Source: an uncultured Actinomycetes bacterium
Lineage (GTDB): Bacteria; Actinomycetota; Thermoleophilia; RBG-16-64-13
Direction of reading: 5' to 3'
Assembly: GCA_963841735.1 (NCBI GenBank)
Contig: CAWJDT010000001.1
Span: 1,440,001 to 1,504,000 of the forward strand
Length of the DNA stretch: 64,000 bases
Each line of letters begins with the position of its first letter. Positions within the stretch are counted from its first letter, which is position 1. Made by a program: the position numbers and the translations under genes. This document shows, piece after piece, positions 17,141-21,248 of the stretch. The notes under the pieces are model-generated. The model did not search any database. It was not told the origin of the DNA and worked only from the letters and a program-made list of their open reading frames with translations.

Positions 17141-18139
17141 ATGCTATACGACAAGGACGGAGATCTGGGTCTTCTCGAAGGGAAGACCGTGGCAGTTATA
17201 GGCTTCGGTAGCCAAGGGCACGCGCATTCGCAGAACCTCAGGGACAGTGGGGTCAAAGTCGTAGTGGCCGAAGCTCCGGGCACGCCGGCATGGGATAGGG
17301 CAGCAGCGGCGGGCTTCGAGGTGTTGACGGCGGATGCCGCAGCAGCTGTGGCCGACGTCATAATGATGGTCGTGCCCGATCAGACGCAGAAAGTGGTCTA
17401 CGACACCGCTATTCGCCAGAATCTAAAAGACGGCGACATGCTCATGTTCGCTCATGGGTTCAACATCCACTACAGCCAGATCATCCCGCCGGCAGGCGTG
17501 GACGTGACCATGGTGGCCCCCAAGGGCCCGGGTCATCTGGTGCGGCGGGTCTACACCGAGGGCGGCGGCGTGCCGGCCGTGGTGGCCGTCTACCAGGACG
17601 CTACCGGCAAAGCCCGAGACCGTGCTCTGGCCTATGCCAAGGGCATCGGCTCCCTGCGCGCCGGCGTCATCGAGACTACCTTCAAGGAAGAGACCGAGAC
17701 CGACCTGTTCGGTGAGCAGGCGGTGCTGTGTGGCGGGGTGAGCGAGCTCATCCGCGCCGGTTTTGAGACTTTGGTGGACGCGGGCTACCAGCCGGAAGTG
17801 GCCTACTTCGAGTGCCTGCACGAACTGAAGCTGATCGTCGACCTTATCCATGAGCACGGCATCAGTGGGATGCGCTACTCGATCTCCGACACCGCCGAGT
17901 ATGGTGACATGACTCGGGGCAAGCGCATCATCAGCGAAGAGGTCCGCGAAGAGATGGGGTACATCCTCGAGGAGATCCAGACCGGCGAGTTCGCCAGGGA
18001 GTGGATCCTGGAGAACATGGCCGGCCGTCCGGTCTACAACGCCATCAAGCGCGAAGAATCTGAGCACGAGATCGAGATAGTGGGCCGGCAGCTGCGCGCC
18101 ATGATGCCCTGGCTGGGCAAGAGCGGCAAGCTGGAGTAG
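17141..18139 (+). CDS. ilvC: Ketol-acid reductoisomerase
   Basis: [37 protein letters not shown]; AAGGAG SD. Confidence 0.97.
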
Positions 18140-18196
18140 TAGGCACCCTGCTCGGCCGCCCGGGCGAGTGCCGGGCGGCGCGAGGTGTCGTCTTGA

Positions 18197-18227
18197 GTCG
18201 GGCCCGCAGCGCTGCTGCGGGCCCGAC
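18197..18227. terminator. GC-rich hairpin between convergent ilvC and LysR
   Basis: Perfect 14-bp stem GTCGGGCCCGCAGC/GCTGCGGGCCCGAC with 3-nt loop. Confidence 0.6.
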
Positions 18228-18310
18228 CTGCGCTCCGGCCTCGGCCGCGCCGGCCAGCCATCCAAGACTGTAGGTGCCGGACCGTGCCTCGCCGCCCTGT
18301 GGCGAGGCCA

Positions 18311-19285
18311 CTAACCGGGGAGAGCAGAGCCCGGCGCGGCGTCCTCATTGTCGGTCGGCGCTGGTGTCAACGGTCCGATGTTACCTGGGACCGGGTACTT
18401 CATGCGCTCTACCACCCGGGCACGCACGTGTGCCATCAGCATCTGCGCGGACCGGGTGTGAGACCGGTCTTTGCTACGAATGAGGTTGAGGTCACGGGTG
18501 AGGCCACCCTTCACCTCCAGCGTGGCCAGACCTTCCCGGCCCAATCCACTGAGGGCCAGGTTGGGTAGTAGCGATACGCCAAGACCTTGGCGAACGAAAT
18601 TCTTGAGTGACTCGATTGAGCCTGCCTGGTAAGCAACCCGGGGCTCAAAACCGGCCCGGCGGCAGGCATCGACTGTCTGGGTCGTCAGGTTGAAGGCGTT
18701 GGTGGGCATCACGAAGTCGTCGAAGGCGAGCTCCGACAAGTCGATCATCCTGCGCTCCGCGAGACGATGTCTGGGTGAGGTGATGACAAGCACTTCCTCA
18801 CTGCCCAAAGGGACGACGTCCAGGCTTTGGGGTGACCCCGGCGCCGTGACCACGGCAAAATCTAGAGAGCCGCTGTAGACCCGGTGTTGCAGTTCCAGAT
18901 CTCCGCCTTCGGCCACCTCGACTCGCACCCGCGGGAAGGCCTCGTTAAATGAGGCCAGCAGGGTGGGCACCAGGTAGGCTGCCACCGAGGGGTTGGCGCC
19001 CAACCGGACGTCACCGGTCTCGACGCCCGACCGGTCCTGCAGCAGCCGCACCGCCTCGCTGGCCCGGGAGAGGACCGAGCGGGCCAGTGGCAGAAAGATC
19101 TCGCCATCGGAGGTGAGGCTTATCCGCCTACCCTTGCGGTGAAACAGCTGTGTGCCGAGTTCCTCTTCCAGGCGTCGCATCTGGTAGCTTAGGGCCGGTT
19201 GCGTGACGTGGACGACTGCGGCTGCGCCCGTGAAGCTCAGCGTCTCGGCGATGGTGACGAAGTACCTTAGCTGGGTCAGTTCCAT
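18311..19285 (-). CDS. LysR-family transcriptional regulator
   Basis: MELTQLRYF...SFTGAA...VTQPALSYQMRRLEEELG HTH plus substrate-binding domain. Confidence 0.96.
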   Translation of the reverse strand: MELTQLRYFVTIAETLSFTGAAAVVHVTQPALSYQMRRLEEELGTQLFHRKGRRISLTSDGEIFLPLARSVLSRASEAVRLLQDRSGVETGDVRLGANPSVAAYLVPTLLASFNEAFPRVRVEVAEGGDLELQHRVYSGSLDFAVVTAPGSPQSLDVVPLGSEEVLVITSPRHRLAERRMIDLSELAFDDFVMPTNAFNLTTQTVDACRRAGFEPRVAYQAGSIESLKNFVRQGLGVSLLPNLALSGLGREGLATLEVKGGLTRDLNLIRSKDRSHTRSAQMLMAHVRARVVERMKYPVPGNIGPLTPAPTDNEDAAPGSALPG

Positions 19286-19292
19286 GTCTACG

Positions 19293-19358
19293 ATAAAAAT
19301 AGCCTATAGTACAGATAGAAACAACGTATTGGAATTATGGGTAGTTCGTGTGTATATT
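19293..19358 (+). promoter_or_regulatory. Tandem LysR T-N11-A boxes overlapping a divergent sigma70-like promoter
   Basis: ATA-N9-TAT at 19293-19307 and 19315-19329; TTGGAA (19329-34) N18 TATATT (19353-58); AT-rich patch. Confidence 0.7.
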
Positions 19359-19364
19359 GCAAAT

Positions 19365-19485
19365 CGCTGAGCACTGATATACCGCTATCCAGGGAACCCC
19401 CCCTCCCAGATGGTGGCAGTGTTGAGCAGCTTTCCCGCAGCATAGTCGACTCCTCCCCCAACGGAGCCGGCTATGCTACTTTTTT
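19365..19485 (+). ncRNA. Candidate small RNA: two stem-loops with C-rich loops, ending in an intrinsic terminator
   Basis: Hairpin 1 about 19367-19427 (loop ACCCCCCC); hairpin 2 19439-19477 (AGCATAGTCGACTCC/GGAGCCGGCTATGCT, loop TCCCCCAAC) then T6 at 19480-85; promoter upstream. Confidence 0.6.
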
Positions 19486-19550
19486 GGGCAAAATCGCCCA
19501 GGGGCGGCCTCTCGTGAACATCCGAGGTTTCATGGTGTCGGAGCCTTCAC

Positions 19551-20525
19551 ATGTATAGGTGCATCGGCGGTTTGGCGAACACGATATCCAAATCGGTCAG
19601 GGGCCTCCGGGGAGGTGGTGCCGGCAGCCGACGGGTGCGTCTGCTCGCTCAGATCGGTCTGGGCCTGGCTGGAGTCATCTGGGGGGCCAACTTCGTGTTG
19701 GTGAAGGTGGCCATGGAAGATATGCCGCCCCTCTATTACCTGGGGTTGCGTTTCCTGGTGGGCGCTGTGGTGCTCGCTCCCTTTAGTGTGAGACGGCTGA
19801 AGAGACTCGATCGACGCAGCTGGATGCTGGGCTGCGGGATAGGGGCGCTGCTGTTTGCCGGCTTCGTGTTGCAGACCGTGGGGCTCCGCTCTACCTCGCC
19901 GGGCATCTCAGGCTTCCTGACCAGCCTTTATGTGCTCATGGTTCCTCTGATCCTAGGAGTGGCGACGGGCCGGTGGCCATCGCCTATGGTGGGGCTGGGG
20001 GTGGTGGTGGTAGCCGCCGGACTGGCGGTGCTATCTCTCTATGGCGAGGCTGCATTCGGTCTGGGAGAGCTCCTCACCTTGCTTGCCACAGTCTTCTGGG
20101 CCCTCCACATCCTGGGGGTGGGATACGCCTCCACCAGGATCAGCGCTATCGCGCTCGTGCAGATCCAGCTTACTGTTTGCGCCGTTCTGTCGTTGGCCTG
20201 TGCCTTTGCCATCGAGCGGCCTCAGCTCTTTCCCGGCTGGGAGGCCACGGGAGCCGTGCTCTGGACCGGGATCATGGGGGGAGTGGTGGCATATCTGCTG
20301 ATGGCTTTGGGACAGCGGTACACGCCACCTACACTTGCGGGGATCCTCATGAGTCTGGAGGCGGTCTTCGCTCTCATCGTGTCGATGATCATCGGCTACG
20401 ACACTCTGACAACGCGGACTGTGATCGGTTTCGTTCTGATGTTTGCCGGTACCACTGCAGCTCGAATCGGGTCAGAGAAGAGGACACCGGAGCTGGCGGC
20501 AGAGCCCGCGCCGCCGGGGCCTTAG
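19551..20525 (+). CDS. EamA/DMT-family transporter (true start possibly further downstream)
   Basis: IWGANFVLVK, about ten TM segments in two EamA repeats, LEAVFA. Confidence 0.92.
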   Translation: MYRCIGGLANTISKSVRGLRGGGAGSRRVRLLAQIGLGLAGVIWGANFVLVKVAMEDMPPLYYLGLRFLVGAVVLAPFSVRRLKRLDRRSWMLGCGIGALLFAGFVLQTVGLRSTSPGISGFLTSLYVLMVPLILGVATGRWPSPMVGLGVVVVAAGLAVLSLYGEAAFGLGELLTLLATVFWALHILGVGYASTRISAIALVQIQLTVCAVLSLACAFAIERPQLFPGWEATGAVLWTGIMGGVVAYLLMALGQRYTPPTLAGILMSLEAVFALIVSMIIGYDTLTTRTVIGFVLMFAGTTAARIGSEKRTPELAAEPAPPGP

Positions 20526-20531
20526 CTTCGC

Positions 20532-21248
20532 TCAGCTTCGTCCTGCGGCCGCTCTCGCGACAAAGGCGGCTACCTTCGTGGCTACAGCTTCGTAGGCGCC
20601 TTCGGGTTCCTTCCCCGAGGAACGAGGCAAGGCTAAGGAGTGGTCTCCCCCTTCGACCACGTATAACTCACCGGGCACGACTAGACAGGGGAGGGCGGGA
20701 CGCAATAGTTCCAGGTTGCAGAACGGATCGTGGCTGCCTATACAGAACAGGCTGGGGATGTCGATGTGCCGGAGGGGTTTGAGGTTGATGCGGTCGGGGC
20801 GACCAGGCGCGTGCAGCGGGTAGCCGAGTTCCACGAGACCCGCGGCGTCCACGCCGTCTCCCTCCGACCGACGCGAGACCATCTCGGCGGCTACCCGCCC
20901 GCCCAGAGATTTGCCCCCCACGAAGACGGGGACGCCCGCTACATAGAAGCCGCTTGCGAGCCGGGCGTAGGCGGCTCTAAAAGCGGCCTCCAGCACCACG
21001 GCCGAGTCCGGGGAGTCGGCGCCGCTCTCCGCATAGGCGAAGTTGAAGCGGAGCACCGCGATGCCGGCCGTGTCCGCCAGACGAGCGGCAAGATAGGCTA
21101 GAAGGGAGTGGTCCACGTCATTGTTGGACCCGTGCGCAAGGAGAAGAGCGGCGTTCGGGGCGGTGCCGGCCGGGGTGTCCAGCTTCGCGGTCACGTCGAC
21201 CGCACCGAGGACGTCAATCTTGAAGCTTCTCGAGGGGGATCGAGGCAT
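20532..21248 (-). CDS. Alpha/beta hydrolase (KANSL3/Abhydrolase_11-like)
   Basis: LLAHG, nucleophile GGKSLGGR, GYPLH, GSHDPF, GGDHS. Confidence 0.85.
   Translation of the reverse strand: MPRSPSRSFKIDVLGAVDVTAKLDTPAGTAPNAALLLAHGSNNDVDHSLLAYLAARLADTAGIAVLRFNFAYAESGADSPDSAVVLEAAFRAAYARLASGFYVAGVPVFVGGKSLGGRVAAEMVSRRSEGDGVDAAGLVELGYPLHAPGRPDRINLKPLRHIDIPSLFCIGSHDPFCNLELLRPALPCLVVPGELYVVEGGDHSLALPRSSGKEPEGAYEAVATKVAAFVARAAAGRS

Follow-up and report, generated by a model that had tools for sequence, protein, structure and literature searches.

A covarying small RNA predicted to be transcribed divergently from a LysR-type regulator gene in an uncultured order of Actinomycetota

What is made from the 265-nt spacer between a LysR-type regulator gene and an EamA-family transporter gene, a spacer that contains two operator-like boxes, a promoter, two hairpins and a run of six U residues (U6)? 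The spacer lies in a 64-kb stretch of DNA, which was analysed as a whole and is called the window here. A first-pass annotation had read the arrangement as a LysR-controlled promoter that makes a short non-coding transcript of 6C-like architecture, and had named an attenuator or riboswitch leader of the EamA exporter as the alternative. The regulator, the operator, the promoter, the RNA and the terminator are all found inside 1.2 kb, and the coordinates of the features are collected in Table 1.

Table 1 Features of the LysR-RNA-EamA locus in the window (positions are those of the window)
Feature	Position	Strand	Basis or remark
LysR-type transcriptional regulator (LTTR) gene, 324 aa	18311..19285	-	Divergent from the RNA; Pfam HTH_1 2.7e-24 and LysR_substrate 4.5e-48
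LysR box 1, ATA-N9-TAT (T-N11-A)	19293..19307		Candidate regulatory site, centre ~-66 from the predicted start
LysR box 2, ATA-N9-TAT	19315..19329		Candidate activation site, centre ~-44; abuts the -35 hexamer
RNA promoter, -35 TTGGAA, 18-nt spacer, -10 TATATT	19329..19358	+	Consensus scan, 9/12 matches
Candidate LysR-gene promoter, TTGCAA-N17-CATAAT	19334..19362	-	Consensus scan only; back to back with the RNA promoter
Predicted small RNA, ~120 nt	19366..19485	+	From the first conserved base (G, 8 nt past the -10) through the U-tract
Hairpin 1	19366..19427	+	Lower stem near-invariant, G.G and A.A mismatches included; upper stem covarying
Hairpin 2, predicted intrinsic terminator	19439..19485	+	14-bp stem 19439-19477, then U6 19480-19485
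EamA-family transporter gene	19551..20525	+	Pfam EamA 3.5e-35; begins 65 nt past the U-tract

Both of the ATA-N9-TAT boxes that the annotation had pointed out are present, 22 bp apart from start to start, and this two-box pattern occurs once in the window against 0.00 occurrences expected from 100 shuffles. In the relatives, box 1 retains its outer half-sites and varies in its interior; box 2 together with the -35 hexamer forms a near-invariant block across the order, and the placement of the boxes upstream of the RNA promoter, with box 2 overlapping its -35, is conserved as well. The 19-nt core of the box 2 block has one exact site in the window's genome. A second operator-like site with three mismatches on contig C7 was judged to be a chance match; the DNA around it is AT-rich and unlike the rest of the genome. 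Near position 85.1 kb (L163:1300-1640), this contig of the window's genome (G000) is strongly AT-rich, compared with a GC content of ~62% for the window, and it may be mis-binned; the reported contamination of the assembly is 2.33%. Boxes near -66 and -44 are the usual arrangement of the regulatory and activation sites of LTTRs. The motif, the position of the two boxes and their conservation suggest binding by the LysR protein, although the motif is one of low information content. The definition of the LTTR box as T-N11-A and the divergent bidirectional architecture are described in the literature (PMC11495319).

The TTGGAA-N18-TATATT promoter was also found where it had been proposed, and it was picked by a consensus scan of positions 18300-20600 that returned four promoter-like sites against 0.3 expected. 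At 54 of the 57 loci that were compared (one per genome), the regular expression TTGNNN-N17-19-TANNNT matches at a fixed distance from the RNA; the promoter is visible by eye at the remaining three, with one deviation each. The -10 elements (TANNNT) agree with what we take to be the actinobacterial promoter consensus. As for the candidate promoter of the LysR gene on the opposite strand, its -10 overlaps a conserved ATTAT beside the -35 of the RNA promoter, and its -35 part is not conserved.

Sequence conservation extends from box 2 as far as the T-run and not beyond. We placed the predicted start of the RNA at G19366, because the conservation of the RNA sequence begins exactly there. The two hairpins described by the annotation, with ACCCCCCC as the apical loop of hairpin 1 (19396-19403) and UCCCCCAAC as the loop of hairpin 2 (19454-19462), are indeed present before the EamA gene and are followed by U6. 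When positions 19355-19490 were folded, the minimum free energy (MFE) was -54.2 kcal/mol with a z-score of -4.67, and none of 200 shuffled sequences was as stable. Hairpin 2 is a GC-rich stem-loop with a U-run directly 3' of it, which is the criterion for an intrinsic terminator. A terminator scan missed it because its 9-nt loop is longer than the limit of 8 in the scan. At least four T residues occur within 10 nt past the GGCTAT of its 3' arm at 54 of the 57 loci, a rough count since the counted stretch still takes in the last bases of the stem, and the T-run is down to three in some distant genera. The possibility that the RNA is a coding sequence was considered and dropped, on the grounds of 1-5-nt indels between copies and compensatory changes in the stems; the 73-aa and 57-aa open reading frames across the RNA match no Pfam family.

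The fold is supported by covariation among the relatives, a check that the annotation had proposed. A first alignment of 20 copies, from which the covariance model was built, yielded 35 consensus pairs, and compensatory changes occurred at 11 of these. An independent MAFFT alignment contained 60 copies (57 primary and three extra, with a weak match in genome G021 left out), and RNAalifold placed 26 pairs on it, with 96.3% of the cells pairing. Two-sided changes were seen at 15 of these 26 pairs, in 149 cells. Column shuffles of this alignment never reached any of five measures (0/500); the shuffle test is inflated by the kinship of the sequences, but two further observations are independent of that. 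When the partners were moved by 1-3 columns, pairing fell to 27-46%, and the pair types were balanced between Watson-Crick alternatives (GC 26 and AU 24; CG 24 and UA 22; UA 39 and CG 19).

The changes were distributed differently over the two hairpins. All five pairs in the upper stem of hairpin 1 had compensatory changes (one of them, for example, is GC in 26 copies but AU in 24), and so did 8 of the 13 pairs in hairpin 2, where 97.9% of the cells pair. The lower stem of hairpin 1, with the G.G and A.A mismatches in it, was almost constant, and variation in the pairs of helices 1 and 2 was limited to one side or to 2 of 60 copies. The C-runs of both loops were invariant in all 60 copies. These computations show that the RNA forms a structured family with a fold supported by covariation.

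The distribution of the RNA is narrow. BLASTN with the spacer picked up 19 of 24 further members of the family and none of 16 genomes of other families. The covariance model, which scores the window copy at 139 bits, found a copy in 57 of the 61 genomes of the order, itself a single family, with all 19 genera represented. The RNA was present in 23 of 25 family members in a sample of the class, which also held 125 genomes from ten other families without it, and in none of 148 genomes of other families in a sample of the phylum. It is a single-copy element in the window's genome, but there are three copies in genome G024, two in G070 and a weak second match in G021. A pattern scan of the prokaryotic species, each represented by one genome, gave 69 stretches, of which 32 were confirmed by the covariance model; the other 37, all from other phyla and not confirmed by the model, were set aside as chance matches. 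Every one of the 32 confirmed records is a metagenome-assembled genome, and the labels they carry are Thermoleophilia, Gaiellales, Actinomycetota, Actinomycetes, actinobacterium and, once, Coriobacteriia. The RNA is therefore specific to one uncultured actinobacterial order.

Genomes of the order that lack the RNA were inspected individually. The LysR orthologue of G003 is cut at residue 96 by the end of a contig, and therefore the RNA would fall beyond the contig. Genomes G004 and G043 are 58-59% complete. In G071, which is 96% complete, there is no LysR match at E 1e-30 either. When the unfiltered model was run beside the LysR paralogues of the genomes without the RNA, nothing credible appeared, the best score being 20.4 bits.

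Which neighbour does the RNA keep? For the count, one RNA-oriented locus per genome (57) and three extra copies were taken, and the window's proteins were located by TBLASTN. A LysR orthologue with 44-63% identity was upstream of and divergent from the RNA at every primary locus (57/57), the distance from the LysR start to the start of the model being 67-320 nt with a median of 89. The EamA gene was on the same strand no more than 400 nt downstream at 38 of the 57; at 12, the next same-strand gene encodes a soluble 238-aa protein with no Pfam family, and at seven other genes lie downstream. One locus in the window's own genus (L030) has a convergent alpha/beta hydrolase gene next to the RNA. 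Because LysR is retained at 57 of 57 loci and EamA at 38 of 57, the conserved unit is LysR, operator, promoter and RNA, rather than RNA and exporter, and this agrees with the LysR-sRNA module that the annotation had preferred to an exporter leader. The EamA gene is a facultative neighbour outside the conserved unit, frequent yet dispensable.

Several further observations concern the neighbourhood. The order ketol-acid reductoisomerase, LysR, RNA, EamA and Abhydrolase_11 (17141-21248 of the window) is shared by most genera of the order. Here the LysR gene and ilvC are convergent, whereas ilvY of E. coli is divergent from ilvC. The gene for the 238-aa protein (L019:1836-2558 on the plus strand; also at L020, L138, L140, L141, L143-L147, L149 and L150) replaces EamA in several genera, and the proteins of the 12 loci are about 75-95% identical; its ribosome-binding region is often G-rich, and a near-consensus promoter stands ahead of it at 8 of the 12. 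This gene was considered as a target of the RNA, but duplex energies of the whole RNA are not meaningful. The extra copies of the RNA, L063 and L066 in G024 and L064 in G070, have no adjacent LysR gene and adjoin genes for an FtsX-type permease, an MFS transporter and an alpha/beta hydrolase; L063 retains the LysR-box and promoter sequence. This copy and the joint lack of RNA and LysR match in G071 are hints that transcription of the RNA may depend on the regulator.

The regulator itself matched no NCBIfam equivalog at the cut-off, and the best models, those of GltC, CidR and CynR, reached about half of their cut-offs. Its nearest relative in the PDB by sequence is an OxyR (E 1.5e-35). The redox-sensing cysteine pair of OxyR is Cys199 and Cys208 in E. 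coli numbering. In the LysR protein of the window, the position that matches Cys199 in an alignment by eye is Asn, the single conserved Cys is residue 208 (89% of 56 orthologues), and the NCBIfam OxyR model scored 140.5 bits against a cut-off of 329. Homology to the OxyR/OxyS pair was dropped, as the regulator is without the sensing cysteine and falls far under the cut-off of the OxyR model.

Comparison with known RNA families was the check set beforehand, and it returned neither a 6C nor a riboswitch match. Infernal with all 4227 models of Rfam 15 found nothing at the RNA in the window region, the 6C and riboswitch models included; the sole match in the region was an irrelevant snoRNA model with an E-value of 8.7 inside the LysR coding sequence. 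Five diverse relatives run against Rfam 15 likewise gave nothing at the RNA, and no 6C at E up to 1. The 6C model RF01066, which has a gathering score of 47 bits, did not match positions 19000-19900 at E up to 10 nor the whole genome of the window at E up to 1, and none of 151 genomes of the class scored above its cut-off, a comparison of poor sensitivity as the C. glutamicum control was below it too. In the published literature, at the level of titles and abstracts, we found no description of this RNA or of an LTTR-divergent sRNA in Actinobacteria; the order is uncultured, and the module appears to be new for the lineage, as the annotation had put it.

Public sequencing runs, including three RNA libraries, matched only in small shares (0.04-0.06 of words). 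Contigs from three RNA libraries and from one doubtful library carry relatives' copies over ~19388-19495, and a few contigs lie over the LysR start. One 301-nt contig covers the promoter and 58 nt past the terminator. Every such contig continues into unlike sequence, carry-over of DNA is possible, and contigs reveal neither the ends nor the level of a transcript.

The loops were also considered in relation to the base composition of the genome. G and C runs are depleted in the window's genome: 7409 G5 runs were observed against 17613 expected and 1477 G6 runs against 5555, and G7/C7 runs are about 7-fold depleted (252 observed, 1752 expected). The C7 in the RNA loop is a rare word because of this depletion. 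Duplex energies against both loops were computed in a target scan over 2290 crude gene calls, in which the LysR start was mis-called, but its ranking is not discriminating: a high score goes to any Shine-Dalgarno sequence that is rich in G. Exact matches to the complements of the loops located 2-15 nt ahead of plausible starts are few, only two to five sites per motif; a MacB/FtsX-type permease, NrdR, a GGDEF response regulator, an MFS transporter and a prepilin peptidase are among these sites, and we regard them as leads only.

Our preferred interpretation, which we hold with moderate confidence, is that the locus encodes an sRNA that is activated by LysR, ends at the terminator and acts in trans. 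Together with the divergent LysR gene it would make up a two-gene module, and it would work like 6C RNA without being a member of that family. As judged from motif, position and conservation, the LysR protein would bind the T-N11-A boxes near -66 and -44 and would activate the TTGGAA-N18-TATATT promoter, with transcription starting probably at ~19366. The transcript is predicted to form a long hairpin at its 5' end and a terminator hairpin after it, which is the step that covariation supports computationally, and hairpin 2 with U6 would stop most of the transcription. By analogy with 6C RNA, the invariant C-rich loops may then pair with G-rich ribosome-binding regions and repress translation. 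A trans-acting repressor is proposed because the exposed C-runs are invariant, G7/C7 words are rare and 6C RNA provides a precedent.

The near-invariant mismatched lower stem of hairpin 1 is a feature that a purely base-pairing sRNA does not account for, and it may mark a protein site. One could go further and suppose that the RNA stands alone as a protein-binding molecule, which sequesters or scaffolds its partner via the invariant lower stem or the C-rich loops. Two observations would suit such a role: the lower stem retains its pairs and its G.G and A.A mismatches, in contrast to the freely covarying upper stem, and the target scan singled out no mRNA target. However, the gene neighbourhood points to no partner protein except LysR, and the invariance of a 5'-terminal stem could also reflect promoter-proximal or stability constraints. 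The C-rich loops of 6C RNA, moreover, have a base-pairing role that is documented in the passages of the mycobacterial study drawn on here (PMC6486639). We consider a purely protein-binding RNA unlikely.

Could the RNA instead be only a cis-acting 5' leader of EamA, an attenuator or riboswitch in which the LysR-controlled promoter serves the exporter and hairpin 2 is a conditional terminator overridden by a ligand or a protein? The RNA is on the EamA strand and ends 65 nt before the gene that follows it at two-thirds of the loci, and in the window's genus no promoter was seen in the spacer between the terminator and EamA, where the regular expression TTGACA-N16-18-TANNNT matches none of the loci. 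An LTTR gene divergent from an exporter gene is also a common architecture according to the portions of the source cited above (PMC11495319). Against this, 19 of the 57 loci keep LysR and the RNA without an adjacent EamA, 12 of them being followed by the soluble protein and one by the convergent gene. A separate near-consensus TTGACA-N17-TAGCAT promoter stands just past the RNA terminator at 11 of the 57, three of these preceding EamA and eight the 238-aa gene. Sequence conservation in the terminator stem and loop resembles that of the other parts of the RNA, which is not so in typical expression platforms. Neither a competing antiterminator pairing in the MFE, centroid and consensus folds, to which the comparison was confined, nor an Rfam riboswitch match was found. 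We therefore regard a pure leader as quite unlikely.

In the same spacer (19486-19550 of the window) and in equivalent spacers of the same genus, a loosely conserved GAT(C/T)GGAG is seen in several genomes, ~25-30 nt upstream of the EamA ribosome-binding site. A look for an upstream open reading frame in these spacers of the window's genus found no conserved reading frame or leader peptide.

A trans-acting sRNA, which remains our preferred reading, leaves room for a contribution in cis. Since no promoter was seen before EamA in the window's genus, read-through may express the exporter there; more generally, and speculatively, some read-through from the LysR-controlled promoter might do so wherever EamA directly follows. 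The RNA may thus have a mixed cis and trans role in the window's own genus.

A bolder version, for which we would give little chance, is a closed regulator-RNA circuit, in which the lower stem would bind the LysR protein itself or an actinobacterial RNA chaperone and the C-rich loops would mimic the anti-Shine-Dalgarno sequence and throttle G-rich sites. If this were true, the RNA would be a transcription-factor-bound sRNA of an undescribed type, with loops that mimic the 16S anti-Shine-Dalgarno. Finally, that the locus is a DNA-level element, an operator or a terminator of a neighbouring gene that is not transcribed as a functional RNA, is hardly credible: the public runs gave no direct evidence of expression, but 149 cells with double changes keep Watson-Crick or G-U pairing on one strand, the promoter is conserved at a fixed distance, the T-run is on one strand only, and the locus terminates neither flanking gene because these diverge from or follow the RNA.

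To our knowledge, regulatory RNAs are almost unknown beyond a few cultured actinobacterial genera. The present RNA is a well-supported new family: it occurs in 57 genomes, shows strong covariation and is absent from Rfam. The order that carries it is represented solely by metagenome-assembled genomes, and the neighbouring gene probably encodes its transcription factor. As the module is compact, it is testable in a heterologous host despite the uncultured state of the organisms.

How does the module compare with known systems? Leader-derived sRNAs such as rnTrpL and SreA are terminated 5' leaders that also act in trans. A likeness to them would fit those loci at which EamA comes next and no separate promoter for it can be seen. 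Unlike these leaders, the present RNA is still there at loci whose downstream gene is a different or a convergent one, and no ligand- or ribosome-dependent switch is visible in it. Several sRNAs with C-rich seeds, among them RsaE/RoxS of Firmicutes, have unpaired C-rich loop motifs that are thought to target G-rich Shine-Dalgarno regions; the present RNA is unrelated to them in sequence and structure, the regulators are different, and there is no Rfam match.

A closer parallel in gene organisation is found in OxyR/OxyS and GcvA/GcvB of enterobacteria and VtlR(LsrB)/AbcR of alpha-proteobacteria. In each of these pairs an LTTR gene has an adjacent, divergent sRNA gene with LTTR boxes in its promoter, and the sRNA serves as the post-transcriptional arm of the regulator. 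The LysR gene described here is likewise adjacent to and divergent from the RNA gene, at 57 of 57 loci. It belongs to another phylum, however, and the RNA has no similarity in sequence or structure to those sRNAs, as judged from the lack of an Rfam match. OxyS, GcvB and AbcR use Hfq, whereas nothing of the kind is implied for this RNA. An LTTR-plus-sRNA module, known from Proteobacteria, would be extended to Actinomycetota by the present locus.

The resemblance to 6C RNA (RF01066; B11 of mycobacteria) lies in the RNA itself: both are small RNAs of the same phylum with two hairpins that carry C-runs in their apical loops. For mycobacterial 6C RNA, the portions of the study cited here describe experiments in which the C-rich loops pair directly with G-rich ribosome-binding sites with no chaperone, and they report that G-runs are under-represented in mycobacteria (PMC6486639), just as they are depleted in the window's genome. 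There are clear differences as well. The present RNA is ~120 nt long, compared with a model of 75 positions; its second C-rich loop is inside the terminator hairpin itself; and its first hairpin is long, with an invariant and mismatched lower stem. It is also linked to a LysR gene, a connection that the same portions of the 6C study do not mention (PMC6486639), and it is confined to one order whereas 6C RNA is widespread. The 6C-likeness that the first-pass annotation had proposed therefore stands as an analogy in the two hairpins with C-rich loops, but not as membership, given the lack of a match to RF01066 and the narrow distribution: the RNA is 6C-like in architecture and is not a 6C RNA. 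The comparison suggests that sRNAs with C-rich loops directed at rare G-runs have more than one origin among bacteria of high GC content.
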